This document shows positions 1,211-41,675 of a stretch of DNA of 41,675 nt, one piece after another. How positions within the stretch are numbered: position 1 is the first letter of the stretch; every line of letters begins with the position of its first letter. Under the pieces are notes generated by a model. The model saw only the letters and a program-made list of their open reading frames with translations. It was not told where the DNA came from and did no database searches. The stretch lies in NCBI GenBank assembly GCA_042569595.1, contig JBHPHI010000004.1, positions 1 through 41,675 on the forward strand. The letters are read 5' to 3'. Both the position numbers and the translations under genes were made by a program. The stretch is from Patescibacteria group bacterium. Lineage in GTDB: Bacteria > Patescibacteriota > Microgenomatia > UBA1400 > 2-01-FULL-45-11.

Positions 1211-2486
1211 ATAAGTTTTTTAGAGCCTCTCCCACGACAAAAAAACTTCCAGTTATTAGACATTTTGACTTCTTTGTTTTTGGAATTAGTTTTAAGGCGT
1301 CTTCAACAGAATGAGAAATGGTATTTTTTACATTTTGCTTTTTGCACTCATTGGCAATTTTTTTAGGAGACATTGACCTTGGATGATTTGATTTTGTTGT
1401 AATTATTTGACTTGAAATAGGTTTAAGAAGAGAAATAATTTTCTTTACGTTTTTATCGCTTGATAAACCTAGAATTACTGTAACTTTATTTGTATATATT
1501 TGTCCGATTGTACTTGCAACATAATTAATTGATTCAGGGATATGAGCCGCATCTAGTATAAAGGTTGCTTCCCTTTTTCTAATTTTTTGAAACCTTCCGG
1601 GCCAATTTATATGAGAAATTGCATGTTTAATTGATTTTTTCGAAACACCCAATTGAAGTAAAACCGTTATTGCTGTTTGGATATTTACTAGCTGATGATC
1701 TCCAAGAAGAGAAGTGCTAACTTTGTCAAAAATATTTGCTATGCATATTTCCTGATGTAAAGAATCTTGTTTTATTTTTTCTATTTTGATTTTTTTAGAT
1801 GCATCTATAAAAATTGAATTATTTTCTTTGGCAACAACTTTAAACATTTTTTCTGCATCATTGTGAGATTGTTTTGAGATAACTATCGGAGTCCTTGGCT
1901 TAATAATCCCGGCCTTTTCTGTGGCAATTTCTTTTATGGTGCTCCCTAGAACAGAAGTGTGTTCTTTAAATATTGGAGTGATAGCAGAAATTTCTGGGCT
2001 GATAATGTTGGTAGCGTCTAGCCTTCCTCCTAACCCGACTTCAATAATTGCCCTATCTACCCCATGATTTTCAAACACTTTAAATGCGAGAATGGTCATA
2101 ATTTCAAAAGTTTGGATGTTTTCAACCATGCTGATATGGGGTAATAGGTAGTTTAAGGTATCAGTAAACTCATCTTTTGAAATACTTGCACCATTTATCC
2201 TGAATCTCTCTGTGAATTCAATAAGATGAGGTTGTGTGAACATTCCTGTTTTAAATCCTTCATGCCTAAGTCCAAGTTCAATTAAGGCGGAGGTTGATCC
2301 TTTTCCCTTTGTCCCTCCGACGTGAACGGACTTGTACTTTTTTTGAGGATTCCCGCAAAGATTTGCTAATTTCTTCACTTTATCTAAACTGAAATTTTCT
2401 TTAGACAGAGATTGACCCGGCTTTTTTTCTAAGTCTGTGAACTTGAGAAGGTAATTTGTTGCCTCTTTGTAGTTTTTTAACTTCAT
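1203..2486 (-). CDS. folC: Folylpolyglutamate synthase / dihydrofolate synthase
   Basis: HVGGTKGKGST, PHL..FTERF, EVGLGGRLDATN, EKAGI, WPGRFQ, DAAH, TGSFF. Confidence 0.93.
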   Translation of the reverse strand: MKLKNYKEATNYLLKFTDLEKKPGQSLSKENFSLDKVKKLANLCGNPQKKYKSVHVGGTKGKGSTSALIELGLRHEGFKTGMFTQPHLIEFTERFRINGASISKDEFTDTLNYLLPHISMVENIQTFEIMTILAFKVFENHGVDRAIIEVGLGGRLDATNIISPEISAITPIFKEHTSVLGSTIKEIATEKAGIIKPRTPIVISKQSHNDAEKMFKVVAKENNSIFIDASKKIKIEKIKQDSLHQEICIANIFDKVSTSLLGDHQLVNIQTAITVLLQLGVSKKSIKHAISHINWPGRFQKIRKREATFILDAAHIPESINYVASTIGQIYTNKVTVILGLSSDKNVKKIISLLKPISSQIITTKSNHPRSMSPKKIANECKKQNVKNTISHSVEDALKLIPKTKKSKCLITGSFFVVGEALKNLSN

Positions 2487-2510
2487 AACTGGGATTATAT
2501 ATTACGAAAT

Positions 2511-2535
2511 AAAAAGGGCCATTAAAGGCCCTTTT
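2511..2535 (-). terminator. Intrinsic terminator after the aldolase gene (possibly bidirectional)
   Basis: AAAAGGGCC-N6-GGCCCTTTT hairpin with U-tract, 20 bp after the stop at 2556. Confidence 0.8.
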
Positions 2536-2555
2536 GTAGTATTGTTTAAAATGTA

Positions 2556-3881
2556 TTAATCAGCTAAGCCTTTTACGTCCCCAAGTTTTGCTGATTTTGT
2601 GATAAAGTCATTTTTGGTTTTTGAAACCTCAACTAAATTCACATGTTTTTTTACAATATCTATTGAATCAACAACGTTTAATTCCTTGTAAAAGAACTCA
2701 AATCTGTTTGCTAGAGAGCTTCTTATCTTTTCTTTTTTTTCTTCTAATATATCCCAAGTGTCTTTTTTAAACTCCCCCCAAGCTTTTTTCCTGAGCTTGT
2801 AGTGAAATTGTTCAATGGTTTGACCTTCTTTTTTCTCGTCTTGTTTTGTTTGATCTAGCCACAAATACATTTTACTAATTAAATCGCTAGGAAATTCTTT
2901 ATGGTCCATTTGTATGTTTTGAAACCCTGTGGCGAGATGAACCTCTACAGCTTCTGATTTTGTGAATTGACTGAAGTACTCGTCAGGTAATGTAGAAGCT
3001 CCGTGCTGCACAGAACCACCAATTTGAAATTCCTCCCGGCAAACTTTCGAGACGTCTTTTAAAATAGAAAAGTCTATATCAACATCTGCAAGCGATCCGT
3101 CTGCAAGCACGACTCCACCATGGCTGCTTCCCGTGTTCACACTTATTTTACTCATACCCTTAACACTTCCCATTTCTTGGTTGAACCCCTTCAAATAAGC
3201 CCTCACATCCTCAACAGAGCTGTTTACCCCTCCAATATGGCCAACCTCGCCCCCTAAAGATGTTGTAATACCTTTTGGTTCGATTTCTCTAATAAATTTA
3301 GCTATTTCAACAGAATATTTGATGTTTCCGACCTGTTGTTCCTGTTCTTCCTTTTTGTCTAAATCGACAAGAGTAGACATATCAATATCTACATTGTAAA
3401 AACCTGCATTTAATGCCTCTTTTACTAAATCTGATATTGTTTTTATTTCGCCCTCTTTTGGAACTCCAGGTGAATCTGCTTTTGCCTGAAAATGATCACA
3501 CTGTAAAAACAAGGGCCCTACCCAACCCTCTCTGATGGCTGCCGCTCTGACTACGGTTGCATACTCCATTGGAGGTTGATCTGTGTATCCCATTTCAGAT
3601 CGTGCTAATTCAAAAATTAAAGCACCAACATTGTGTTTTACGGCAGCCTTAAATGCAGCTCTAGCTGTGTCGTAAGCCATTCCTCTTATGTTCATTGCCG
3701 GAACAGTAAAGTTGTGTGGTAGGTTGTTTGATCCTCTTGCTAAATAAAAGTCATTGATTGATGAAGAGATTATGCCTATTTCATTTGCTCGATTGTATAT
3801 TTGTTCTCTTGCAGAAGACTTTTCCTCTTCTAATCCAAAGACTGCTTGATATACAAGCTTGTCAATTTGTTTTGAGTTCAT
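2556..3881 (-). CDS. Class II fructose-bisphosphate aldolase family protein
   Basis: VPAMN, LQCDH, GGEVGHIGG, GSSHG, VQHGAST metal-binding motifs. Adjacent to glpX. Confidence 0.85.
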   Translation of the reverse strand: MNSKQIDKLVYQAVFGLEEEKSSAREQIYNRANEIGIISSSINDFYLARGSNNLPHNFTVPAMNIRGMAYDTARAAFKAAVKHNVGALIFELARSEMGYTDQPPMEYATVVRAAAIREGWVGPLFLQCDHFQAKADSPGVPKEGEIKTISDLVKEALNAGFYNVDIDMSTLVDLDKKEEQEQQVGNIKYSVEIAKFIREIEPKGITTSLGGEVGHIGGVNSSVEDVRAYLKGFNQEMGSVKGMSKISVNTGSSHGGVVLADGSLADVDIDFSILKDVSKVCREEFQIGGSVQHGASTLPDEYFSQFTKSEAVEVHLATGFQNIQMDHKEFPSDLISKMYLWLDQTKQDEKKEGQTIEQFHYKLRKKAWGEFKKDTWDILEEKKEKIRSSLANRFEFFYKELNVVDSIDIVKKHVNLVEVSKTKNDFITKSAKLGDVKGLAD

Positions 3882-8288: not shown

Positions 8289-10478
8289 CTAGACTAATTT
8301 TTTAATGCCTACCAGTTTTTTTTCAGCTTCAAGTGTGTAGTGCCTAAGCTGATCTATAAATGAGGGACTGCTTGTGATTCCCCAAGCGCCGTATTTTATT
8401 GAGCTTTCTATTGTATCTGGATGAATACTTAAATCTTCACCTGCAATAATAGTTTTTGTTTTGTGCTTGCTGGCCTTTTGTATGACTCTTTTTATTAATT
8501 CCTGAACAGAATCATCTCTTTCGTTGTATTGATTATCTAGTTCCGGTAAATTTCTATCTACTCCTAGAGTCAACATTGTTAAATCATTTACTCCAATTAC
8601 AAAACCATCTATTCCTGCTTCAATAAATTTTTCCGTACATAATGCAGCAGAGGGTGTTTCTATCATGGACCAAATCTGAAGGTCTGAAGATCTTTTAATC
8701 TCTAGATCAGCTAGAATTTTTTTGAAAAATATTAGCTCGTGGATAGTCCTAACAAAGGGAATAATAAGACGAATATTGTTGTTTTTTGACACATTAATTG
8801 CCTTGAAGACAGCACGAGACTCCAATTTGATAATTTCCTGATTATTTATGTGTTTTAAAGCTCCTCTATATCCAAAGCTTGAGTATTTTGTATTTTGATC
8901 GAATATGTAATCTGAAAATCGATAAAACAAAGGCTTGTTTTTGAGTTTGTTTGATAACTTGACTAAAGTGTTGGTTATGTTTTCTGAGTTGCTTTTTGAA
9001 TCTTTATTTTGATTGATTACAAACTCCCCTCGAACAAAACACACTCCATCTACATTGTTTGCATTGAAATTACCCAATCCGTCTTCAAATAAGCTTGTAA
9101 ATATTTTAGTTGCAGTTTTCTGAGGTGATTTTGATATTTTAACTGGTTTGACGTGAGTAGTTTTTGATGGTGTAGATCCATGATATAAAACTGATGACGA
9201 AGCATTCAATGTTACAACTGAACCATCTTTTATTTTCGGCAGTGCTTCTACTGATATAGAGGGAATTGCTAGCTCTTTTATATATATAGATTCTTTCTGG
9301 TGAGAGGAGGCGTTTTCCAATATACACCCAGAAATTTTAATTTTTGGTAGATCATATATTAAGTTTGAATATTTGATTCCTACAACGTCCCCATTTTTTA
9401 TTTTTTTGATATCTTCATTTTTAGAAATTTTTATATACCTTCCTGTTGTGAGTCCGTTGGAGATTTTTTCACCTGAAATAATTGTCTTCATGTTGGAGAA
9501 TATTGACGGCTTACTGCTTGGTTTTATAGGAACTATATTTTCGTTTTCATTTATATTTTGTGAGTCTATTATGTAAAAATTTCCATTTTCTTCTGCCCAC
9601 TCAATTTTCTGGGGAAAAAAGAGCTTTGCTTGAATTTTTTTAGATATTTTTGCTAACTTTATGATATTTTCATCTGATAATTTTTGAGAGTTTTGTTTTT
9701 TTGAATTCACATTTTTTTCTTCTATTCCTGAAAGCTCCCTTTTTAGTTGAGTCCTTTGATCCGTTACTTGCTTGCTAATTATTTCAAGTGAGTCTCTATT
9801 TATGTGATATTGGTCGGGGTAATAATCTTTGATGTATTTGTCTTTAATTCCCCATACTGAGTGAATTGTTAATTGATTTTTAGTTAATAGCCCCGGTGTT
9901 TGAGTGTAAGCAACCCCCGAAGTATTTGCCCCAATCATTTGCTCAACTATTACAGAAATCTTTAATTCTTTAACGTTTATGTTTTTTTGATGTATTTTGC
10001 TAATTAGTTTGTGATTGAATATAGAAGCCCAAACCTTACGAACAGCTTCCTGCAGGTTTGTTTCTCCAACCACGTTCAAGATTGGCTCTTGGTGTCCAAT
10101 TGAGTCTTTGTTGATAGAAAAATCGCCTCTAACTGCAACATGATTGTCTGATTTCATAGAGTGGTATGCATTAATAAGTGTCAAAGCTATTTTTTTGGGA
10201 AACTCTGAAGATTTTATTAGTAAAGAAATTCTTTTTGAGGCGATGTCTAGGTCTGATGGATTGAAAATATCTATGTTTTTGATCTGGTGTTGGATTTTGT
10301 CAATTAAGTAGTTTTTTTCAACAAACTCAGAAAATACTTTTGGAGTAACCACAAATCCTTTTGGGACTCTAAATTTAGCTTGAGATAATGTAGACAGCAC
10401 CACACCTTTTCGGCCTAAATGCTTTTTGTTTTCTTCTGAAATATCTTTAAACCACAACAAATATTTCTGCGTGTTCAT
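8289..10478 (-). CDS. PEP synthase / pyruvate,water dikinase-like protein, degenerate
   Basis: Three-domain PpsA layout (VPKGFVVT, VRKVWASIF, IEWA; central KELAIP; IPFVRT, MIETP, IGVNDLT). Catalytic motifs are altered. Confidence 0.85.
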   Translation of the reverse strand: MNTQKYLLWFKDISEENKKHLGRKGVVLSTLSQAKFRVPKGFVVTPKVFSEFVEKNYLIDKIQHQIKNIDIFNPSDLDIASKRISLLIKSSEFPKKIALTLINAYHSMKSDNHVAVRGDFSINKDSIGHQEPILNVVGETNLQEAVRKVWASIFNHKLISKIHQKNINVKELKISVIVEQMIGANTSGVAYTQTPGLLTKNQLTIHSVWGIKDKYIKDYYPDQYHINRDSLEIISKQVTDQRTQLKRELSGIEEKNVNSKKQNSQKLSDENIIKLAKISKKIQAKLFFPQKIEWAEENGNFYIIDSQNINENENIVPIKPSSKPSIFSNMKTIISGEKISNGLTTGRYIKISKNEDIKKIKNGDVVGIKYSNLIYDLPKIKISGCILENASSHQKESIYIKELAIPSISVEALPKIKDGSVVTLNASSSVLYHGSTPSKTTHVKPVKISKSPQKTATKIFTSLFEDGLGNFNANNVDGVCFVRGEFVINQNKDSKSNSENITNTLVKLSNKLKNKPLFYRFSDYIFDQNTKYSSFGYRGALKHINNQEIIKLESRAVFKAINVSKNNNIRLIIPFVRTIHELIFFKKILADLEIKRSSDLQIWSMIETPSAALCTEKFIEAGIDGFVIGVNDLTMLTLGVDRNLPELDNQYNERDDSVQELIKRVIQKASKHKTKTIIAGEDLSIHPDTIESSIKYGAWGITSSPSFIDQLRHYTLEAEKKLVGIKKLV

Positions 10479-31962: not shown

Positions 31963-34900
31963 TTAATTTTGAGACTCAACTAAAAGGTTGTTTATTTTCC
32001 TTTCTACAACATCTGAATAATTGATCGTGTATGGCAAATCGAGCACTTTATCATCTCCTCCGTTTGGAATGATAACTTGAGCTCTTTCTTGGCCGGGGTT
32101 TTCTTTTAAAATTGTACCAATTTTTGCCAATACAGCTTTTCCTGTTCCTCTCGGAATATTTATTTTTATTGTGCTTTTGCTTTGCACTGCTGATAACTCA
32201 TACACATCATCGACTAAAAAAGATGATTTTCCATCTCTTTCATCGAGTTTTCCTTTTACAATTACTATTTTTTCTTCCATCCAAAATCTTTTCGTTTTTT
32301 CATAAGTTTTTGGAAACACTACTAAATCTATGCTGCCCGTGTCATCTTCTAGAGAAACAAAAGCCATTTCGGAGTTATTTTTCTTGGTAAATATCTTCCT
32401 GACAGACGCAATCATTCCGCCTATGGTGGTTTTTTGGTTTGTATGAATTATAGGATCTAACTGACTGATTTTTGAATCGGTAGCATCGCTAACGTCTTTC
32501 ATGGAGTGTGCTAGGGGGTGATCTGTTAGATATAAACCTAATAATTCTTTTTCTGCAGCTAACATTTCAGAGTCTGGAATTTCATCCATTTCTGGAAGAT
32601 TGTCTTTTATCTCAATTTTTTCATTTTTTGCTACTGAATCAAATAGACCTTCCTGACCAATTGAAAGTTTTTTCTGTTTATCAGCTGCTTTGCCACGAAT
32701 TTCTTCGTAGCCTGCCAATATAGAAGATCTTTTACCAAATATGTCCATTGCACCCACTCTAACTAGACTTTCAATTACCTTCTTATTGCACTTTCTGTTA
32801 TCTACTTTAGAGAAGAAGTCTGTGAGTGAAGAAAACTCACCTTCTTTTTCCCGAACTTCTAGAAGATTTTCCACAGCTACATCCCCGACATTTTTTATAG
32901 CTGACATTCCAAATCTTATGGCCCCTAACCTGCCTTTTTCGGTGGCTTTTTCCATGGTAAAAGCTAAATATGATTTGTTTATTTGTGGAGGCAAAAGTTC
33001 AATATTTAGCCTCTTGCAATCTTCAACAACGAGATTCATTTTTTCTTCCTTGCTTGCTGAATGAGAATGAGATTCGATGGTAAAAAGGGCCGTCATGTAT
33101 TCAAGGGGGTAGTTTGCCTTCATGTATGCTGTTTGATATGCGATCATAGCGTAGCTCACGGAATGAGCTTTGTTGAAGCCGTAACCTGCAAATTTATCTA
33201 TAAACCCCCATATCTTTGTTGCAATTTTTTCGGTGTATCCTTTTTTCTTAGCTCCTGCTACAAATTTCTTTTTTTCTTTATCTAATATATATTTCTTCTT
33301 TTTTCCTATCGCTCTTCTTAGGATATCTGCTTCTCCTAGCGAGTATCCTGCCATTACATTTGCAATTTGAAGAACTTGCTCTTGATATACCGGAATTCCG
33401 TAAGTTTCTTCTAACACTTGCTTTAAATCCGGATGTGGATATTTTATGGTTTCTGGGTTTTTCTTTCCTCCAATAAAAGTATCTATCAGCTCCATAGGTC
33501 CTGGTCTATATAAGGCCACCATAGCTGTAAGGTCCGAAAACCTACTTGGCTCTAGTTTTTTTGCTACTCTCCTCATTCCCGAAGATTCAAGCTGAAACAC
33601 ACCTGTGGTGTGACCTTTAGAGATCATTTCATATACTCCTGAATCGTCCAAAGGGATGTCGGACAGCTTGATTTTCTTTTTTCTCTTTTTTTCCACAAGC
33701 TCAATCGCTCTACCTAGAATGGAGAGATTCCTTAACCCTAGGAAGTCCATTTTAAGTAGGCCTATTGCAGTTTCATCTACGTTTAAGTCTAGGTCGTACA
33801 TGTCAAACTGAGTAACTATTTTTCCTCCTCGGGATTCTCTTTGGATGGGAGTGTATTCTGGCAATGGCTTGTCGGAAATAACAACAGCTGCTGCATGAAC
33901 AGATGAATGCCTGCTGTTACCTTCCACTTTTTTGGCTAAATCAAGAAGTTTTTTAAACTTTGGCTGTTTGTAATACTCCTGCATTTCCATTACACCAACA
34001 ACTGATTCTTCTATGGAAAACCCTTGCGGAATAAGTTTTGCAATCTTATCTGTCTCGGAAAAGGTTAAACCTAAAACCCTTCCAATATCTCTAATTGCAG
34101 CCCTGGCCTCCATTGTTCCAAAAGTAATTACCTGAGCCACTTTGTCTTCGCCGTAAGTTTCTGTTGTGTATCGGATAACCTCATCTCTTCTTTCATCTGC
34201 TATATCAATATCTATATCGGGCGGAGAAGGTCTTTGAGGATTTAAAAACCTTTCGAATGGAATGTCGTGCTGTAAGGGATCAATGTCTGTGATTTCGGTA
34301 ATATAGGAAACAATGGAGCCGGCAGCAGATCCCCTACCTGGCCCCACCCTTATTTTCTGATCTTTAGCCCAATTAACAAAATCTTGAACAATTAAAAAGT
34401 ATGTCGAATATCCTTTATCTGCAATGACTCCAAGCTCGTACTCAATTCTGTCAAGCACTTTTTGTGTGGGTTTTTTATATCTATTTTTAACGCGGTCATA
34501 AACGAATTTTTTTAGGTAAGAAGCTTCATCAAACCCATCAGGAATAGGATAGTTTGGAAAAATCATTTTTCCTGTGGGAATTTCTACGTTGCATTTTTCT
34601 GCGATTTTGACGGTGTTTTCCAGGGCATCTGGATATTCTCTAAAAAGTTTTTGCATTTCCTCTGTAGTTTTTAGATAAAAATCAGGAGAGTCTATCATAG
34701 ACATTCTATTTTTATCATCTATGGTTTTTCTTGTTTGAACTGCCAAAAGAGCATCCTGAGCATCTGCATCATCTTCATCGACATAATGAACGTCATTGGT
34801 AGCTACAAGCGGAACACCAAATTCTTTTGATAGCTCTATTAATTTTGGAGTTAGTTCTTCTTCTAAGTCTTTTAAGTTTGGGTGGTTTTGAATTTCTATA

Positions 34901-35488: not shown

Positions 35489-36793
35489 TTAGCTTCTGAG
35501 CTTGCTTTCGAAGATTTGCTTTAGAAGTTTTCCGTCTGCTTTTCCTTGGCTTAAAGCCATGGCTTTTCCAATTAGGGCCCCTATAGCTTGATCTTTTCCT
35601 TCTTGGTAGTCTTTTGCCACTTTTGGTAATTGATCTATTACTTTTTTCACTATTTCTTCCAATTGGCCAGTGTCTGCAATTTTGCTATCAGCTTCTTTTT
35701 TTATGATGTTTGGAATTTCTTCTGGCTTTACTTTCGTTATATCTACTAGATTGTTTACTATCATTCCAACAGCTTTTTGAAGACCTACATTCATTTTTTT
35801 ACACGACTTAATTACTTCGTCAATATACTTGGATGTGTTTGAGTTTACTGATAATTGAGCCGCATAGTCCTCTCTCATCCCAAGGTCTATCCACCTTTTC
35901 TTTACTTCATCTGGAAGTTCAGGGATTTGAGACCTAATTTTCTCTATTTGCTCTTCTGATATGTGAATTGGGGGAATGTCTGGTTCTGGGAAATACCTGT
36001 AATCAGCGGCCTCTTCTTTTATTCTTTGAGATTTTGTTTTGTTTAATGACTCATCCCACCCCCTGGTTTCTTGTGTAGGAATTTCACCCTTTTCGATTAA
36101 CTTCTTCTGTCTTTCAATTTCATAATCTATTGATCTTCCTATGAATCTGAAGGAGTTTACGTTTTTTACTTCCACCTTATATCCCAGACTCATACCTAGA
36201 GATATATTTGCCTCTAGCCTCATGGTTCCTTTTTCCATGTCGCAATCTGATACGCCAAGGCTTCTTACAATTGATCTTAATTTTTGACCAAACTCCTTTG
36301 CCTGTTTTGAAGATTTTATGTCTGGTTCTGTAACAATTTCTACCAAAGGAACACCGCTTCTATTGAAGTCAACCAAAGAAGCGTCTTTTCCCTTTATGTT
36401 TTTATGTTGAAGTTTGCCTGTGTCTTCCTCTAAATGCACCCTAGTAATTCTTACCCTCCCATCCGTGGTGTCTAGGTACCCGCCAGTGCAAAATGGCTTG
36501 TCGTACTGACTGATCTGATACCCTTTTGGCAGATCTGGATAAAAATAATGTTTTCGATCGAACTTACTCACTTTATTTACTTTGCAATTTAGAGCCATCC
36601 CGATCATTATTGTCCAGTCAACTGCTTTTTCGTTTGAAACAGGCAAAGCCCCAGGCAAACCCAAACAAACGGGACATGTTTGAGAGTTTGGTTTCTTTCC
36701 GAAATGATCAGCTGGGCAACCGCAAAACATCTTGCTTTTAGTTTCGAGTTCGACGTGTATTTCAAATCCTACTACTGGCTTTTCCACTTTCAT
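35489..36793 (-). CDS. gatB: Asp/Glu-tRNA amidotransferase subunit B
   Basis: GFEIHVEL, KMFC, YFYPDLPKGYQISQ, HLEEDTGK, DYRYFPEPD. ATG overlaps the gatA stop (ATGA). Confidence 0.98.
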   Translation of the reverse strand: MKVEKPVVGFEIHVELETKSKMFCGCPADHFGKKPNSQTCPVCLGLPGALPVSNEKAVDWTIMIGMALNCKVNKVSKFDRKHYFYPDLPKGYQISQYDKPFCTGGYLDTTDGRVRITRVHLEEDTGKLQHKNIKGKDASLVDFNRSGVPLVEIVTEPDIKSSKQAKEFGQKLRSIVRSLGVSDCDMEKGTMRLEANISLGMSLGYKVEVKNVNSFRFIGRSIDYEIERQKKLIEKGEIPTQETRGWDESLNKTKSQRIKEEAADYRYFPEPDIPPIHISEEQIEKIRSQIPELPDEVKKRWIDLGMREDYAAQLSVNSNTSKYIDEVIKSCKKMNVGLQKAVGMIVNNLVDITKVKPEEIPNIIKKEADSKIADTGQLEEIVKKVIDQLPKVAKDYQEGKDQAIGALIGKAMALSQGKADGKLLKQIFESKLRS

Positions 36794-38031
36794 GACTTTG
36801 GTCTCCTTGTATGCCAATCTGTAGTTTTTTGATACTGAGATCCTAATCCGAAGAGTACTTCCTCACTCCATCTTGGTCCAATGATCTGCATTCCAATCGG
36901 CAAGTCACTTTTCGTAAATCCGCACGGCAAAGCAAGGGAGGGAATTCCAGCCAAACTCGCATTAACCGTTAAAACATCTGACAAATACATTTTTAGTGGG
37001 TCGTTTACTCGCTCTCCTAAATCGAAGGGAGGAGTTGGGGATACTGGCCCCATAATTACGTCTACCTTTTTGAAAGCTTTTGTAAAATCATCTTTAATCA
37101 AGGTTCTTACTTTAGCTGCTTTTTCATAATATTTAGATGAATATCCTGAAGATGATGCAAATGTGCCTAGTAATATTCTTCTCTCAGCCTCTTGACCAAA
37201 ACTTCCTCTATTTTTTCCATATCTTACGCCATCATATCTTGATAAATTACTTGAAACCTCGGTAGACATAACTAAATAATAAACGGCAATTCCATATTTT
37301 GTGTGCGGCAATGAAATGTTTACTAATTCGTGTCCTTGATTTTTTAAAGTATCTATTGCTTTAGTAACCACTTCTTTTACCTCTTTATCCAAACCCTCTA
37401 AAAAATACTCGTCAGGAATTCCTATGGTAATCTTTTGACTTTCTCTGAAATTAAATTCTTTTTCTTTTTCCCTAGTCTTTAGTTGAGTATTAGAGTCTTT
37501 TGAGTCTTCTTTTGAGCAAGCTTCATATATCTTTTTTACCTTTTCCACAGAAGTAGAAATTATGCTGGGACAATCCAAGCTGCTTCCCATTGCTATAATT
37601 CCATATCTACTCAGAGATCCATACGTCGGTTTCAAACCTACAGTATTTGTGAAACAAGCAGGAAGCCTAATAGACCCACCCGTGTCTGTTCCAAATGAGT
37701 ATTCAGCATAGCCGTCGGCAACTGAAGCTCCTGAGCCACTACAAGAACCCCCCGGGGTTTTTTTAGGATTCCATGGATTTTTTGTAGGACCAAAATCAGA
37801 GTTTTCTCCACTAGCTCCATGAGCCCAAGCGTCTAGATTGACCTTTGCTTTAGTTCTGTAGCCTTCTTTTTCTATTAGATCTACCACTGTTGAGGTGTAT
37901 TGAGCCTGATAGTTTTCTAAAACTTTTGATGCAGCAGTGGTTTTTGTCCCTTTTATTAAGTAATTGTCTTTATGGGTAACAGACCCGCTTTTATCTACTT
38001 CTGAAATAATGTAGTTTAAATCGTTCTTCAT
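36790..38031 (-). CDS. gatA: Asp/Glu-tRNA amidotransferase subunit A
   Basis: KDN, PGGS, GTDTGGSIRLPA, KPTYG, RYDG, RILLG. Start at MKNDL. Confidence 0.97.
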   Translation of the reverse strand: MKNDLNYIISEVDKSGSVTHKDNYLIKGTKTTAASKVLENYQAQYTSTVVDLIEKEGYRTKAKVNLDAWAHGASGENSDFGPTKNPWNPKKTPGGSCSGSGASVADGYAEYSFGTDTGGSIRLPACFTNTVGLKPTYGSLSRYGIIAMGSSLDCPSIISTSVEKVKKIYEACSKEDSKDSNTQLKTREKEKEFNFRESQKITIGIPDEYFLEGLDKEVKEVVTKAIDTLKNQGHELVNISLPHTKYGIAVYYLVMSTEVSSNLSRYDGVRYGKNRGSFGQEAERRILLGTFASSSGYSSKYYEKAAKVRTLIKDDFTKAFKKVDVIMGPVSPTPPFDLGERVNDPLKMYLSDVLTVNASLAGIPSLALPCGFTKSDLPIGMQIIGPRWSEEVLFGLGSQYQKTTDWHTRRPKS

Positions 38032-38032
38032 T

Positions 38033-38332
38033 TTAAATAACCTTGTCAACAATAAAATAACCATTATATGTGTGCGTTGCTTGCGAAAGGGCCTCTTCCT
38101 GAGTTAGTCCTGGTTTAATTTCATCCTCTCTTAATACATTGACTTGGTCATCAATTACTTGATAAGTTGGCTTTGTATTTTTTGTGTCAGCTTCCTCTAG
38201 TTGTTCAACATAATTAACAATATTTACTAATTGAGGAACATAAGATTCCAACTCTTCTTCAGATACATCAATTTTTGCTAATTTTGCTGTGTGTTTTAGT
38301 AGCTTATCGTCAATTTGAATTTTTTTACTCAT
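38033..38332 (-). CDS. gatC: Asp/Glu-tRNA amidotransferase subunit C
   Basis: AKLAKI, QL..I..YV.QL, LRED, F.V.KVI. ATG at 38332 preceded by AAGGA. Confidence 0.93.
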   Translation of the reverse strand: MSKKIQIDDKLLKHTAKLAKIDVSEEELESYVPQLVNIVNYVEQLEEADTKNTKPTYQVIDDQVNVLREDEIKPGLTQEEALSQATHTYNGYFIVDKVI

Positions 38333-38341
38333 TTTTCCTTT

Positions 38342-38369
38342 AAAACAAAAAACTAGCCGGTGGCTAGTT
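38342..38369 (-). terminator. Attenuator terminator directly upstream of gatC
   Basis: Minus strand AACTAGCC-ACC-GGCTAGTT followed by TTTTGTTTT. Confidence 0.9.
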
Positions 38370-38393
38370 CGAATACAAGTATCCAAACTAACC

Positions 38394-38498
38394 CTAAGGG
38401 ATGTTGTTTTGTTGTTGGGTAATTACAACAAAAGTAGTATACCACCCAGACTTAGGGTTTGTGTTTGAATATTTAAAAATTCTAATATTTTTCTTCAT
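38394..38498 (-). CDS. Gln/Asn leader peptide MKKNIRIFKYSNTNPKSGWYTTFVVITQQQNNIP (34 aa)
   Basis: Translated by hand. CAA CAA CAA AAC AAC at 38417-38403, TAG at 38396-38394. Confidence 0.85.
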   Translation of the reverse strand: MKKNIRIFKYSNTNPKSGWYTTFVVITQQQNNIP

Positions 38499-38505
38499 TG
38501 ATACT

Positions 38506-38676
38506 TTATATTAATAATTCATCTGCTTCTTTTGCAGACACAGCTCCAGCAGCCTCTAACGACTGAACAAGTCGTTCCTGCGCTTTCTGTATTAATTTAT
38601 ACTTTGTTGGAGCAGATATATTTGCTCTAACTAAATGCGCTAACTCTAAATGGCTGCTATATTTGTTTTTGCTCAT
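38506..38676 (-). CDS. Small hypothetical protein, 56 aa (MSKNKYSSHLELAHLVRANISAPTKYKLIQKAQERLVQSLEAAGAVSAKEADELLI)
   Basis: Translated by hand. Strong SD AGAGGTGA 6 nt before the ATG. Confidence 0.65.
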   Translation of the reverse strand: MSKNKYSSHLELAHLVRANISAPTKYKLIQKAQERLVQSLEAAGAVSAKEADELLI

Positions 38677-38726
38677 TTTTTATCACCTCTTTTCTATATT
38701 ATTTTAAAATTATTGTCTTTTACCCT

Positions 38727-38748
38727 CTCCTTTTTTTTGAAAAAGGAG
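38727..38748. repeat. Short palindromic hairpin
   Basis: CTCCTTTTT-TTTG-AAAAAGGAG, 9-bp stem. Confidence 0.6.
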
Positions 38749-38759
38749 GATCTAAAATG

Positions 38760-38787
38760 AAAAAAGCTAGCAGTGGTTGCTAGCTTT
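38760..38787 (-). terminator. Terminator of the upstream attenuator-like element
   Basis: Minus strand AAAGCTAGCA-ACCAC-TGCTAGCTTT followed by TTTCATTTT. Confidence 0.85.
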
Positions 38788-38814
38788 GTCGTTTATTAAC
38801 TTTTTGTTTTTAAC

Positions 38815-38883
38815 TTACGACAAAGCCACCTCCTTATTGATGAGTTGTTGGAAAATGATGGTGGTTGTCTTTATTATTTTCAT
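38815..38883 (-). CDS. Putative leader peptide MKIIKTTTIIFQQLINKEVALS (22 aa)
   Basis: ATG directly follows the TAA of the upstream ORF. Its 3' end forms the antiterminator arm. Confidence 0.65.
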   Translation of the reverse strand: MKIIKTTTIIFQQLINKEVALS

Positions 38884-39048
38884 TTATCTTAAGTGAGCTA
38901 CGTCTGACTCGTTAAGGCCGTACTTATCTACTAAGTGGTCTATAAGGTCCTGACGAACTTTATGGATTTTCTTTTCACTTCCATTCTGCCATGCACCCAG
39001 GGTGTTTTCAAGAAGATCTAAGTAATAGTCTGTTGATATTTTTGTCAT
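38884..39048 (-). CDS. Small hypothetical protein, 54 aa (MTKISTDYYLDLLENTLGAWQNGSEKKIHKVRQDLIDHLVDKYGLNESDVAHLR)
   Basis: Translated by hand. Open frame with protein-like composition in AT-rich DNA; stop abuts the next ATG. Confidence 0.55.
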   Translation of the reverse strand: MTKISTDYYLDLLENTLGAWQNGSEKKIHKVRQDLIDHLVDKYGLNESDVAHLR

Positions 39049-39197: not shown

Positions 39198-41675
39198 TTA
39201 GTTAGAAAATACTATCTTTTTGCCTTTAGAAGAAACCTTGATTGTTGTGTCACTTATACCCTCTTGTAATATCTTTATTGCTAGAGGATCAAGTATGAGT
39301 GTTTGAATAAGTCTCTTGAGAGGTCTTGCTCCATAGACTGGATCATAACCTTCTTCAGCCAGGCGTTTTTGAACACTTTCATCAATCTTTAAAACAATAT
39401 TTTGATTTTCAAGTCTTTTTACAGCTTTTTCTATCTGAATCTTCACAATGTCTCTTAAGTTTTCTTTTGAGAGGGGCTCAAACATGATTATTTGATCCAA
39501 CCTATTTATAAACTCAGGCGGAAAGGTGTTTTCTGTCGTCTCCATTACTTTGCTTTGTATTTCCTTGCTGATTACTCCTCCAGATTCTTGAAGGTATTTT
39601 GAGCCAATATTGCTTGTCATGATTAGAATAGTATTTTTAAAATTTACAGTCTTTCCTTGTCCATCAGTCAACCTACCCTCATCAAAGATTTGCAGCAATG
39701 TGTTAAAAATTTGAGGATGTGCTTTTTCAATTTCATCAAAAAGAACAACAGTGTAAGGATTTCTTCTTACAGCCTCTGTGAGTTGCCCACCTTCTTCAAA
39801 GCCAATGTACCCTGGAGGAGCTCCAATAAGCCTAGCTATAGAATGTCTTTCTGAATACTCGCTCATATCTAGTCTCACCAAGGCTTTTTCGTCTGCGAAT
39901 TGAACCTCAGCAATAGCTTTTGTTGTTTCTGTTTTACCAACTCCTGTTGGTCCTAAGAATAAAAATGCTGCAATAGGTCTGTTTTCATCTCCAATACCTG
40001 CTCTGGATCGTCTAATTGCGTCTGCGGCTGCTTTTAAAGCCTCATCTTGCCCAATCACTCTCTTTCTAAGCTCTTCTTCCAAATTTATTAGTTTTTCTAC
40101 TTCACTTTTTAAAAGTTTTGCTACGGGGACTCCGCTCCATTTTGAAATAACTTTGGCGATATCGTCTTCTGTAACTTCTTCCTTTAGCAACCTATCTTCT
40201 TCTGGAATATTTTTCCATTGGGCTTCTATAGCTTTTATTTCCTCTTTTGTTTTTGGTAGTTTTCCATATTTTATTTTTGCAGCATCTTCTAATCTCACTT
40301 CTCTTTCAGCTTTCTCAAGATTTACATTTTGGTTTTCCAGCTCTTTTCTTAACTTTCTTAACTCTTCTATGATTCTTTGTTGTTCTTCCCACTTTTTTAC
40401 TAATTCGTTTTTTTGTTCCTTTAAGTCCGCTATTTTTTTCTCGATATCTAATTTCTTTTGCTTTGATTCTTCGTCTTTTTCTTTTTTTAGTCCTGCCACC
40501 TCTATTTCTAACTGAGTTAACTTTCTCTTTAAGCTATCTATGATTTCTGGCTCTGACTCTGTTTCTATCTTTAGACTAGAAGCCGCCTCATCCAAGGCAT
40601 CTATTGCTTTATCTGGCAAAAATCTGTCTGAAATGTATCGGTCGGATAAATTTGCCGCAGAAACTATTGCTTCATCTTGAATACGAATTCCGTGGTGAAG
40701 TTCATATTTTTCTTTTAATCCTCTCAAAATTGAAATAGTGTCTTCAACGTTGGGAGCATGTACCACAACAGGTTGGAAACGCCTTTCTAGAGCTGAGTCT
40801 TTTTCTATATGCTTTCTGTATTCTGAGATTGTGGTGGCTCCGATCATCTTCAGAGTACCTCTTGCTAACCCGGGCTTTAACATGTTTCCAGCGTCTACAG
40901 CCCCTTCTGCACTACCCGCCCCCACCACAGTGTGAAGTTCGTCTACAAATAAAATTACTTTACCTTCTTCTTTTTGAACTTGGTCAATAATAGATTTTAA
41001 TCTTTCTTCGAATTCACCTCTAAATTTAGCCCCGGCTAAAACTGAGGCCATTTCTAATACTAATAACTTTTTATTTTTTAGCGATTCTGGCACGTCCCCT
41101 TTTATTATTCTTTGCGCTAGCCCCTCTACAATCGCAGTTTTTCCGACGCCGGGCTCCCCAACTAATACAGGGTTGTTTTTTGTTCTTCTAGAAAGCACTT
41201 GCATTATGCGTCTTATTTCCTCGCCTCTACCTATTACTGGATCCAGTTTTCCTTCTTTGGCAAGTTGGGTTAAGTCTGTGGCGTACTTTTCTAAAGCTTT
41301 ATATGTGCTTTCTTGCGAGCTACTAGTTACTGGGCTGTTTTGTCTCATTTCTTCAATTTCTTTCTCAATTTCTTTGGATGTTATTCCAACTTTCTTGAGA
41401 ATATCATTTGATTGGCACTCTGTCAATGTGAGTGCTAACAATAAAACTTCTTGAGAGATATATTCATCTTTTCTTTTATTTGCTTCTGACTGTCCTGTCT
41501 TAATAATTCTTGCCAAAGATTGGCTTATTTGAGGTTCTAATTGCTCACCATCCATGACAGGCAATCTATTGACTACTGCCTGAGATTGACTCACAATTTC
41601 CTGATTATTGGCATACTTGTGAATAATTTCTTTAGCCACACCCTCCGACCCTGATAGAGCAAGTAGTAGGTGAAC
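39198..41675 (-). CDS. clpB: ClpB chaperone, 5'-partial
   Basis: [15 protein letters not shown], long coiled-coil M domain, [15 protein letters not shown]. The frame is open to the window end (VHLLLAL). Confidence 0.97.

Follow-up and report, generated by a model that had tools for sequence, protein, structure and literature searches.

The gatCAB operon of the window (the whole 41,675-nucleotide stretch of DNA analysed here) is probably controlled by a ribosome-mediated, or leader-peptide, transcription attenuator that reads Gln-tRNA(Gln) and, less so, Asn-tRNA(Asn). No expression, 3′-end or ribosome data are available, and the proposal rests on sequence, calculated folds and comparison with related genomes. 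Four features by which leader-peptide attenuators are recognized are present: a short upstream open reading frame (uORF), cognate codons near its end, a terminator, and mutually exclusive 1:2, 2:3 and 3:4 helices. These parts are significant against shuffled sequences, they recur with preserved pairing in 21 leaders, and the type of codon they carry matches the gene that lies downstream.

Organization of the gatC leader

The leader and its surroundings consist of the following features.

38676..38506 (-): conserved ORF of 56 aa, function unknown, with a good GAGGTG box; upstream of the uORF
38514..38506 (-): candidate -10 boxes for the uORF transcript (inferred); TAATAT and TATAAA, ending 9 and 6 nt ahead of the ATG
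38498..38394 (-): leader uORF, 34 codons and TAG
38471..38451 (-): segment 1, 5′ strand of the anti-antiterminator, UAUUCAAAC-ACA-AACCCUAAG
38444..38436 (-): extended -10-like box TGGTATACT within the uORF
38433..38407 (-): inner hairpin UUUUGUUGU - AAUUACCCA - ACAACAAAA, a perfect 9 bp
38417..38403 (-): regulatory codons CAA CAA CAA AAC AAC (Q28-N32), two codons ahead of the stop
38398..38380 (-): segment 2, CUUAGGGUU-A-GUUUGGAUA, partner of segment 1 or (from 38393) of segment 3
38393..38362 (-): antiterminator hairpin GGUUAGUUUGGAUA-CUUG-UAUUCGAACUAGCC, with three G-U pairs
38375..38362 (-): segment 3, antiterminator 3′ arm UAUUCGAACUAGCC, the last 8 nt of which are the terminator 5′ arm
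38370..38347 (-): terminator (G)AACUAGCC-ACC-GGCUAGUU(U) with U-run, 9 pairs in the terminator scan
38358..38342 (-): segment 4 GGCUAGUU as terminator 3′ arm, with U-rich tract UUUUGUUUU as its tail
38340..38336 (-): AAGGA box of gatC
38332..38033 (-): gatC, first gene of gatC-gatA-gatB, ATG at 38332; TIGR00135 at 83.6 bits against a cut-off of 47.1
about 38031..36790 (-): gatA, named by eye from its translation, without a family search
about 36817..35489 (-): gatB, named in the same way

The uORF translates as MKKNIRIFKYSNTNPKSGWYTTFVVITQQQNNIP-stop and has no Shine-Dalgarno box. Among the 1,103 short intergenic ATG-ORFs (12-60 aa) of the genome it is the sole case with a Q/N run of five or more residues. 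The stop codon of the 56-aa ORF lies 7 nt ahead of the uORF ATG, so the two frames are possibly co-transcribed and translationally coupled. Homologous ends of the 56-aa ORF are found upstream of the leader in five relatives (G001, G017, G028, G041 and G053), and a Pfam search of this ORF, a 54-aa ORF and the uORF gave nothing above threshold. The start of the uORF transcript is an inference; the modal distance between TAnnnT hexamers and the ATG of long ORFs in this genome is 6 nt (73/720).

The initial annotation, made from the sequence alone, had described a 34-codon ORF ending TQQQNNIP-stop, a 14-bp hairpin with a CUUG loop and three G-U pairs, a terminator that shares the 3′ arm of this hairpin and ends just ahead of the gatC ribosome-binding site, and a protector helix competing with the hairpin. 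All of these are found at the positions listed above. The protector is the 1:2 helix (38471..38451 with 38398..38380), which is part of the minimum-energy fold at -43.8 kcal/mol (z = -3.45; none of 200 shuffles as low). The separate energies are -15.3 kcal/mol for the 2:3 hairpin, -10.7 for the terminator and -29.9 for the 1:2 domain. As an isolated duplex, segments 1 and 2 form 18 bp at -17.7 kcal/mol, an energy matched by 2.2% of 500 shuffles, and the 2:3 duplex is matched by 1% of 500 shuffles in one test and by none of 500 in another. Between 37900 and 39300 there are five terminator-like sites, where 0.6 are expected from shuffles. Two elements had been missed, namely the -10-like box TGGTATACT and the inner hairpin, in which UUUUGUUGU (38433..38425) pairs with ACAACAAAA (38415..38407) so that the Q/N codons form the 3′ arm. 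Segment 2 starts inside the uORF, overlapping its final sense codon and its stop.

The arrangement suggests three states. With no ribosome at the critical place, segments 1 and 2 would pair, segments 3 and 4 would be free to do likewise, and transcription would terminate before gatC. When charged tRNA is ample, an undelayed ribosome is expected to reach the UAG that abuts segment 2 and to cover that segment, and the terminator would form. A shortage of amidated Gln-tRNA or Asn-tRNA would stall the ribosome on the five regulatory codons, open the inner hairpin and hold segment 1 off segment 2; pairing of 2 with 3 could then block the terminator and allow gatCAB to be transcribed. Such an attenuator with a 1:2 / 2:3 / 3:4 layout had been put forward in the initial annotation, and it gains support from the 21 leaders, in six families, described below. 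Translation of the uORF, coupling of the ribosome to the polymerase and a response to charged-tRNA limitation are all inferred.

These states were modelled by folding the nascent RNA with the ribosome footprint masked. In the window leader, 0 of the 8 nt of the terminator 5′ arm are captured without a ribosome and 0 with a ribosome at the stop codon, while stalls at the successive codons Q28 to N32 capture 0, 8, 8, 8 and 7 nt. At equilibrium the masked fold loses the terminator at just one of the five stall positions. Applied to all 21 leaders, the nascent-RNA fold captures at least 5 nt in 17 when stalled, 10 without a ribosome and 8 with a ribosome at the stop, and in 6/21 the equilibrium fold never loses the terminator. 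The trend across the 21 leaders holds but is noisy, and it is in silico only. A DNA sequencing run gave a 151-nt contig within gatC that leaves the leader uncovered.

Q/N leaders in related genomes

Leaders of this one design occur in 15 genera and six families (f1, f2, f3, f5, f11 and f13) of the same order, the total of 21 being made up of the window copy and 20 further leaders. Each has a short Q/N uORF, a segment with two possible pairing partners (the uORF behind it or the terminator 5′ arm ahead of it), and then the terminator. The uORFs are 12-34 codons long (median 15), and the last Q or N is 0-3 codons from the stop. Glutamine is the constant signal, with 2-5 codons (mean 4.0) in the last 12 of all 21 uORFs, and asparagine is variable, with 0-3 (mean 1.8). 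On this point the initial annotation, in which the operon senses both of its products, needs correction. The downstream gene is gatC in 20/21 leaders (within about 200 nt in 19, at 427 nt in one); in the genome G035 the leader precedes a glutamine synthetase gene (Pfam 325 bits), with gatC 1.4 kb further on.

A survey of the regions upstream of gatC in relatives for terminal Q/N uORFs and kept helices, which the initial annotation had proposed, was positive. A strict criterion for such uORFs was met by 5/60 gatC upstream regions and by 0/60 of their reverse complements, by none of the regions further upstream and, over 200 shuffles, by 0.05 on average and never more than 1. N plus Q ranks first of 190 amino-acid pairs in the gatC upstream regions. 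In 11 leaders studied in detail, helix 2:3 is better than 95% of shuffles in 10 and helix 1:2 in 9, and in 10 the distance from the end of segment 1 to the stop is 0-4 nt. The terminator helix of these 11 leaders is 90.7% paired and has compensatory changes, with 7 cells altered on both sides, and is matched by none of 500 shuffles. The sequences of the helices diverge among families with their pairing preserved. RNAalifold on a MAFFT alignment recovered the terminator and just 5 pairs of helix 1:2; the registers of the helices vary between families, and the helices were therefore tested sequence by sequence against shuffles.

A -10-like TAnnnT hexamer ends 6-13 nt ahead of the uORF start in 20/21 leaders, with a TG extension in 15. 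The uORFs are therefore placed at the 5′ ends of their transcripts and appear to be leaderless or nearly so. In G005 and some other relatives a -10-like box also lies between the terminator and gatC, which indicates that the attenuator need not be the sole input.

The element is absent from most genomes of the order, being carried by 7 of the first 61 genomes and by at least 14/140 in family f13. Three candidates were left out of the 21, two as ambiguous (G048, ending …PSQPYQQQ without a terminator, and G181, with a TTG start and QQ only) and G017 because neither helix is significant. A covariance-model survey at class level found that 0/24 loci screened met the Q/N criterion; the two models used (R1 and R2) had this order as their training set and cannot show that the element is missing elsewhere, and most of their weak matches are ordinary terminators. 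In one genome of another order (G353), gatC is preceded by a terminator of this type and a uORF only weakly enriched in Q/N. A second Q/N ORF, MTLSQNQQNLGT, within 2413-2702 (-), lies out of frame inside the 3′ end of a gene and was judged to be due to chance.

The window copy and alternative readings

The copy in the window is not typical of the family. Its 34 codons compare with 12-19 in the other leaders, its Q/N codons lie in the inner hairpin and not in segment 1, and it has a weak -10 before the ATG and a strong -10-like box within the uORF. The latter, TGGTATACT, is possibly a second or ancestral promoter, and a transcript begun there would be antiterminated by default. It is conceivable, if rather unlikely, that the Q/N family is real and this copy is bypassed or decaying, with a constitutive antiterminated RNA made mainly from the internal promoter and the 34-codon frame accidental. 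An ancestral short leaderless uORF would in that case have lost its start, its remnant being TGGTATACT, 12 nt on an in-frame ATT, and then ACC CAA CAA CAA AAC AAC ATC CCT TAG.

Several observations fit this possibility. The strict extended -10 motif is expected just 0.028 times per 170 nt in the window genome, spacings of 7-12 nt from -10 to start are the rule in relatives, and the uORF exceeds twice the median length. RNA begun about 7 nt downstream of TGGTATACT is without segment 1 and adopts the antiterminator fold; calculated folds from 38431, 38429 and 38427 retain helix 2:3 and have no terminator. The nearest relative, G001, which represents a sister genus and is the sole other genome of the family, has exchanged the regulation for a promoter-like box: it retains an identical 23-nt terminator, its 15-codon ORF has no Q/N run, a perfect TGTTATAAT stands directly before the terminator, and both the uORF and the antiterminator are lost (the latter at -7.5 kcal/mol, matched by 55% of shuffles). 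The leaders of G017 and G028 are degenerate in much the same way, and these losses also count against the attenuator reading itself.

Other observations are not readily reconciled with a bypassed copy. Segment 1, with its 18 bp to segment 2 (energy matched by only 2.2% of shuffles), is present only in RNAs started upstream of it. Following an in-frame stop, the reading frame stays open from its first ATG onwards, and a TAnnnT hexamer finishes 9 nt upstream of this ATG; such a hexamer precedes the start in 20/21 leaders. It is the long RNA that gives the full three-state behaviour in the masked-ribosome nascent fold. Finally, there would be no use for a terminator under permanent antitermination, and yet this one is preserved to the letter. 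In a DNA similarity search of 61 relatives the only significant match to the leader is the terminator half of G001 (E 2.7e-5), matches from other genomes being at E 5.6e-4 or weaker. The exact terminator pattern was found at at least one locus each in metagenome and genome contigs, and both loci listed are identical to the G001 leader over the 320 nt compared. Alignment of the window and G001 leaders gives 84/197 identical columns, mostly in the terminator, and the pair is therefore of no use for covariation.

It is improbable that the site is merely an ordinary leaky terminator closing the 56-aa gene and setting a fixed low level of gatCAB, with the ORF and the alternative helices arising by chance in A+T-rich, CAA-repetitive DNA. 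The CAA-rich stretch is indeed of low complexity and is itself a hairpin arm, G001 retains the terminator without the remaining parts, and at about ten genome sites (of 31 rows read) the next start lies no more than 25 nt from a terminator-like hairpin and no obvious -10 box intervenes. Such a terminator does not, however, account for 21 in-frame Q/N uORFs before gatC or glnA where 0.05 are expected, for significant 1:2 and 2:3 helices that differ in sequence from family to family, or for the matching uORFs for Phe, Leu, His and Thr described below.

The weakest alternative, a T-box or another RNA that senses a ligand, a protein or tRNA through this terminator and antiterminator and to which the ORF is irrelevant, can be given very little credence: the leader does contain GGGUGGUA, the start of the T-box consensus line, and T-box (RF00230) matches of 92.7, 28.1 and 25.8 bits occur elsewhere in the window genome, one of them directly before an AspRS-like gene, but positions 38200-38900 give no match to this model at E up to 10 with lax filters, no other Rfam family matches, and the signal conserved across families is a class of in-frame codon and not an RNA motif. 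The GGGUGGUA element, which had prompted a T-box reading, is better explained as part of a -10 box. That reading was rejected, since GGGUGGUA is all that the leader shares and the ACC-GC part is missing; three T-box alignments (two from the window genome, one from G001) carry GGUGGUACCGC or GGUGGCACCAC, and the leader has neither. At gathering thresholds, the 4,227 Rfam models yield only two tRNAs in the window and nothing at the leader, where the best overlapping match, at 18 bits, falls well short of the gathering score of 128. The G001 leader likewise matched no Rfam family. Weak matches to the Phe, Thr and Trp leader families fall on a different terminator, at 38787..38763.

As far as can be judged from a title cited in PMC4206432, T-box control of gatCAB has been published for Clostridium acetobutylicum (Saad et al., 2012). 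On that limited basis the two systems share the operon, the sensing of tRNA charging and a terminator/antiterminator output. The sensor there would be an RNA-tRNA contact, whereas the window leader has an in-frame codon run and no detectable T-box.

Amidated tRNA as the proposed signal and relation to known attenuators

The leader-peptide attenuator remains the preferred reading, and its proposed signal concerns the decoding of glutamine and asparagine codons. GatCAB is not itself a tRNA-charging enzyme: its substrates are mischarged Glu-tRNA(Gln) and Asp-tRNA(Asn), which it amidates, and EF-Tu binds these mischarged precursors poorly. The initial annotation had asked whether glnS and asnS are missing, and neither was found above its family cut-off in the window genome (65 bits against 426 for glnS, 103 against 343 for asnS) or in any of the five other carriers tested. 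G005, with a single Asn codon in its uORF, has an asnS-like gene of 250 bits, below the cut-off. The window assembly, which is 88% complete, has 34 tRNAs, and a gene for tRNA-Asn was not detected among them. Without GlnRS and AsnRS, both Gln-tRNA and Asn-tRNA are products of GatCAB, and the operon would therefore sense its own output. Given the poor binding of the precursors by EF-Tu, stalling would report GatCAB activity and amide-donor supply, not total charging.

Leader-peptide attenuators are known for enteric amino-acid operons, in the trp, his, leu, thr, ilv and pheA leaders. The window leader resembles them in its short uORF with cognate codons, a stop before segment 2, exclusive 1:2, 2:3 and 3:4 pairings and a terminator before the first gene. 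It differs in that its regulatory codons are Gln and Asn, its target is a tRNA-dependent amidotransferase (and glnA in one genome) instead of a biosynthetic operon, the uORFs of its family appear leaderless or nearly so, and the host is a small-genome bacterium; none of the Rfam leader families searched (Trp_leader, Thr_leader and Phe_leader) matches the site. Another parallel is the pheM leader, through which Escherichia coli attenuates its aminoacyl-tRNA synthetase operon pheST by means of a leader peptide; there too a tRNA-charging function is controlled and the product of the enzyme is sensed at the ribosome. Unlike pheST, GatCAB amidates mischarged tRNAs, so that what is reported is the final step of a two-step route, for two amino acids together. 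Glutamine riboswitches (the glnA RNA and Downstream-peptide motifs) bind free glutamine. They too are cis-acting RNAs linked to glutamine status and glnA-type genes, but no Rfam family at E 10 or better has a plausible score on the window leader. The literature searched contained no described leader with Gln or Asn regulatory codons and no publication on a leader-peptide attenuator for Gln, Asn or gatCAB, although related cases might stand in the lists of leader genes by taxon that supplement PMC4833913.

A direct analogue of pheM is present in the window genome, where an FFFF uORF, MTNTKTFFFFKL, precedes pheS (255 bits), and a Leu-rich uORF, MKRKSNSLKLLLSLY, precedes leuS (825 bits). In relatives, hisS (400 and 370 bits) is preceded by His-rich uORFs and thrS (616 bits) by one rich in Thr. 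The balance of this evidence leans towards a family of leaderless leader-peptide attenuators that governs tRNA-charging genes in the small-genome bacteria of this class (Phe/pheS, Leu/leuS, His/hisS, Thr/thrS and Gln/Asn/gatCAB plus glnA), of which the Gln/Asn member would be the first known for either amino acid and the first to read the output of tRNA-dependent amidation.

Within the literature searched, Gln and Asn are new amino acids, and gatCAB a new target, for textbook leader-peptide attenuation. In organisms without GlnRS and AsnRS, decoding of Gln and Asn codons is limited by the amount of correctly amidated tRNA. The five cognate codon-gene pairs are open to side-by-side testing. The proposal provides a concrete and testable regulatory circuit in bacteria that cannot so far be cultured by themselves and about whose control of genes very little is known. 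It predicts that transcription and translation are coupled in these bacteria and that leaderless uORFs are translated; if the wider family is real, it would imply tight coupling of the ribosome to RNA polymerase in these organisms.

Organization of the gatC leader

The gatC leader lies on the minus strand of the window, between a 56-aa ORF and gatC. The 56-aa ORF has a good ribosome-binding box and belongs to no Pfam family; clpB, gatA, gatB and dnaE were named by eye from their translations.

Features of the gatC locus
41639..39198, minus: clpB
between clpB and the terminator at 38787..38763, minus: 54-aa ORF
38787..38763, minus: upstream terminator, between the 54-aa and 56-aa ORFs
38676..38506, minus: 56-aa ORF
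between the 56-aa ORF and gatC, minus: leader, 173 nt
38498..38394, minus: leader ORF (uORF), MKKNIRIFKYSNTNPKSGWYTTFVVITQQQNNIP-stop
38471..38451, minus: segment 1, complementary to the hairpin 5' arm
38393..38362, minus: 14-bp hairpin with three G-U pairs
38370..38347, minus: leader terminator
38332..38033, minus: gatC (TIGR00135, 83.6 bits)
after gatC, minus: gatA, gatB and dnaE, in that order

The uORF, the 14-bp hairpin, the terminator and the competing upstream segment are all exactly as the initial annotation described them. Two further elements, absent from that account, are a perfect 9-bp inner hairpin, one arm of which consists of the QQQNN codons, and an extended -10-like box, TGGTATACT, within the uORF. 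The minimum-energy fold of the free leader RNA combines the anti-antiterminator (helix 1:2) around the inner hairpin with the terminator (-43.8 kcal/mol, z = -3.45). The antiterminator hairpin (helix 2:3) is stronger than the terminator (-15.3 versus -10.7 kcal/mol), and its duplex energy is matched by only 1% of shuffles. Gln and Asn account for 3.3% and 4.8% of residues in the long ORFs of this genome, and the window uORF is the sole case of a Q/N run of at least 5 among 1,103 intergenic ATG-ORFs of 12-60 codons genome-wide.

Within 2413-2702 (minus) of the window another short ORF, MTLSQNQQNLGT, has a Q/N run and precedes a terminator. It was judged a chance occurrence: it is out of frame with the coding gene whose 3' end contains it, and the terminator is followed by a TATAAT box. 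The 56-aa protein is conserved: C-terminal ends related to its own (…EEADxL…) stand before the leader in the related genomes G001, G017, G028, G041 and G053.

Rfam at gathering thresholds finds only two tRNAs in the window, and relaxing the filters to accept E values up to 10 yields no credible match on the leader. A T-box reading of the leader, prompted by GGGUGGUA, was rejected because the leader contains neither GGUGGUACCGC nor GGUGGCACCAC, one or the other of which is carried by the three T-box alignments compared (two from G000, one from G001).

The expectation that the genome lacks glnS and asnS is upheld as far as the assembly allows. Neither was found above its family cut-off (best scores 65 bits against 426, on a GluRS-like ORF, and 103 bits against 343, on an AspRS-like ORF); their absence is likely but not proven, since the assembly is 88% complete. 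Genes for tRNA-Gln(UUG) and tRNA-Gln(CUG) are both present, and no tRNA-Asn gene was found among the 34 tRNAs of this incomplete assembly.

Gln/Asn leaders in related genomes

gatC was located in 60 of 61 related genomes. G001, the only other genome of the family, retains an identical 23-nt terminator, but its 15-codon ORF contains no Q/N run, the antiterminator is missing and a perfect TGTTATAAT stands immediately 5' of the terminator (locus L032 on contig G001:C18, ~1819-1985, minus). Here the attenuator looks to have been replaced by a promoter. On G001 alone the attenuator idea appeared weak; the regions upstream of all 60 gatC genes then reversed that impression. G005, G003 and G053 share the order uORF, stop, a segment complementary to both the uORF and the terminator 5' arm, terminator and gatC. 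G035, G041 and G170 were added by a terminator-type pattern search in 286 genomes of the order. Two covariance models contributed G002, G137, G139 and G219 and, from family f13, G138, G135, G140, G141, G129, G240, G239, G241, G187 and G173. Short Q/N ORFs, which the initial annotation had proposed to look for, recur in 21 leaders from 15 genera and 6 families. Not counted are G001 and G028, which have only the terminator, G017, whose helices lack significance, and the ambiguous G048 and G181. The uORFs range from 12 to 34 codons (median 15); their final 12 codons include 2-5 Gln and 0-3 Asn, and the final Q/N codon stands 0-3 codons before the stop.

Leader sequences by genome
G000 (window): segment 2 GGUUAGUUUGGAUA; terminator stem AACUAGCC / GGCUAGUU
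G005 (family f5): uORF MKSHLFVFQQSQQNLK; segment 2 GUUGGCUGGU; terminator stem ACCAGCC / GGCUGGU
G003 (family f3): uORF MYLSQLNQQQNS
G053 (family f11): uORF MNESRTFNQQNQQEK; segment 2 GCGGCUG
G035 (pattern search): uORF MLIIQQNQQQNS
G041 (pattern search): uORF MRTNMNRIIAVNRNNQQRE; segment 2 GCGGCUG
G170 (pattern search): uORF MKKVNVSNQQSQSQPE
G002: segment 2 CUUGGUGCUUGGU
G137: segment 2 UGGGGGC; terminator stem AACGAGUC / GACUCGUU

A strict rule (ATG-ORF of 8-40 codons, no more than 200 nt from gatC, Q/N at 5 or more of the final 12 residues and a Q/N run of 3 or longer) is met by 5 of the 60 gatC loci, by none of the 60 reverse complements and by no region further upstream; 200 shuffles gave a mean of 0.05 loci and a maximum of 1. 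Of all 190 pairs of residues, N+Q comes first with 5 loci, against 3 for the runner-up.

Helix tests were run on the 11 leaders analysed in detail. Helix 2:3 is better than 95% of shuffles in 10 (G139: 0.064) and helix 1:2 in 9. Segment 1 ends 0-4 nt before the stop in 10 of the 11, the window being exceptional at 55 nt. The helix sequence varies by family with pairing preserved. In the 11-leader alignment 90.7% of the terminator helix is paired and 7 cells show changes on both sides, a signal that none of 500 shuffles reaches and that vanishes when the partners are slid. The identification of this leader family as ribosome-mediated Gln/Asn attenuators is held with high confidence.

gatC lies within ~200 nt downstream of 19 leaders; most of these genes were identified by tblastn or NCBIfam, those of G170, G137, G139 and G219 by eye. 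In G041 it is 427 nt downstream with no intervening ORF of at least 60 aa. This gap (L107, G041:C20) contains two similar ~130-nt copies starting ATGTGTG(G/A)GGTAATATT…, which remain unexplained. In G035 the leader is followed first by glutamine synthetase (Gln-synt_C, 325 bits) and then, 1.4 kb further along that strand, by gatC; this arrangement ties the Q/N signal to glutamine supply as well as amidation. The G035 leader (L105, G035:C47) has its uORF and terminator at ~1440-1524 and glnA at 1545-2906.

Predicted switching and transcript starts

The ribosome was modelled as a mask that extends 15 nt to the 5' side and 12 nt to the 3' side of the first base of the A-site codon. With the full masked leader folded to equilibrium, the terminator forms in 21/21 leaders with the ribosome at the stop codon and in 20/21 without a ribosome; stalling at Q/N codons abolishes it at one or more positions in 15/21, and in the window at one of five. 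In a nascent-RNA test, in which the terminator 3' arm is not yet transcribed, the free window leader captures 0 of 8 nt of the terminator 5' arm; stalling at Q28, Q29, Q30, N31 and N32 captures 0, 8, 8, 8 and 7 nt, and a ribosome at the stop 0 nt. Averaged over the 21 leaders, the captured fraction is 0.48 in free RNA, 0.76 under stalling and 0.40 with the ribosome at the stop; at least 5 nt are captured in 10, 17 and 8 leaders respectively. This trend agrees with the attenuator model, yet it is noisy and purely computational, without experiment.

In 20 of the 21 leaders the uORF start is preceded by a TAnnnT hexamer whose end is 6-13 nt away, in 15 leaders with a TG extension, and in G005 TTGACA lies 17 nt upstream of the -10-like hexamer. 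Judged from these motifs, the Q/N uORFs seem leaderless or nearly so. This reading fits the genome of the window, where such hexamers, often TGnTAnAnT, end 6-8 nt upstream of many start codons, with a peak at exactly 6 nt (73 of 720 long ORFs). In this group leaderless mRNAs therefore seem widespread, and gatC starts this way in most of the relatives.

At the window uORF, TAATAT without TG ends 9 nt before the ATG; ribosomes leaving the 56-aa ORF 7 nt upstream could also reach it. TGGTATACT is the better box, 12 nt before an in-frame ATT followed by ACC CAA CAA CAA AAC AAC ATC CCT TAG, and has the look of a promoter that served an ancestral short uORF, the ATG of which has become ATT. RNA initiated at this box would be without segment 1 and is predicted to fold as the antiterminator. 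The window may thus make both a long, regulated transcript and a short, constitutive one. That the window copy is instead decaying, on its way out, is considered improbable. Its operation as a Gln/Asn attenuator through the 34-codon uORF is regarded as probable, if less secure than the family assignment.

Other codons, other systems

Covariance-model matches beyond the Q/N set share this architecture, with other regulatory codons. In the window's own genome, a scan for genes preceded by a short ORF and then a terminator gave two more such leaders, before pheS and leuS.

Leaders with other regulatory codons
G307 (L184): Thr-rich uORF MKSGFLTITTSIN; thrS (616 bits)
G303 (L186): His-rich uORF MTGLVSRLHHHQKPT; hisS (400 bits)
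G004 (L142): His-rich uORF …SHHDYH…; hisS (370 bits)
G040 (L137): uORF …NHHHL…; histidine-racemase-like gene (61.6 bits, below cut-off)
G000:C5 ~34680-34800, plus (L208 1-230): uORF MTNTKTFFFFKL; pheS at L208 231-1259 (TIGR00468, 255 bits, cut-off 237)
G000:C20 ~8890-9030, minus (L209): uORF MKRKSNSLKLLLSLY; leuS at 153-2690, minus (TIGR00396, 825 bits, cut-off 548)

The pheS leader runs MTNTKTFFFFKL-stop, AGUAGGGGAG, terminator AACUCCCC-AAAA-GGGAGUUUUUUU, pheS, and looks like a Phe leader-peptide attenuator. The leuS leader runs MKRKSNSLKLLLSLY-stop, AAGGGGAGUU, terminator AACUCCC-CAAGA-GGGAGUUUUUUU, leuS; the two switch cores are nearly identical. In G293 (L185) a MRSLSLHHHHSHE uORF precedes an ORF without a family.

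In five systems the codon class matches the downstream enzyme, which marks a signal read by ribosomes and not an RNA motif; we regard this match as the strongest argument. With the observation itself confirmed, the cognate-codon matches and the Q/N leaders of relatives support the attenuator interpretation, and overall a Gln/Asn leader-peptide attenuator is the explanation we hold with good confidence. As inferred from sequence, the gatC leader would work like the classical leader-peptide attenuators, with the pheST leader as its nearest likeness, since the target is a tRNA-charging function. The family differs from the classical systems in sensing Gln and Asn, in its target (a tRNA-dependent amidotransferase, once glnA), in its apparently leaderless uORFs and in its host group. 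T-box control of gatCAB, a different type of sensor, has reportedly been published.

The literature searched, excluding subscription journals and supplements, yielded no account of gatCAB or the supply of Gln/Asn being controlled by a leader peptide, and none that brings together leader peptides, attenuation and the candidate phyla radiation. Two comparative leader-peptide studies (PMC4833913, PMC1262725) do not mention gatC, amidotransferase or glutamine. Given this scope, an earlier description of a Gln/Asn attenuator cannot be excluded.

The genome of the window also has T-box matches elsewhere.

T-box matches in G000
G000:C5:41020-41309 (L066): 92.7 bits, just below the gathering score of 93
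G000:C2:23988-24118 (L068 1501-1631): 28.1 bits, directly upstream of an AspRS-like gene
G000:C13:28140-28301

Just upstream of the aspS T-box on G000:C2 is a 146-nt tRNA match (L068 1084-1229, minus) with a ~75-nt insertion after the anticodon arm, which may be an intron-bearing tRNA.

The presence of T-box matches and leader-peptide candidates in the same genome suggests that this organism uses both devices for its tRNA-charging genes.
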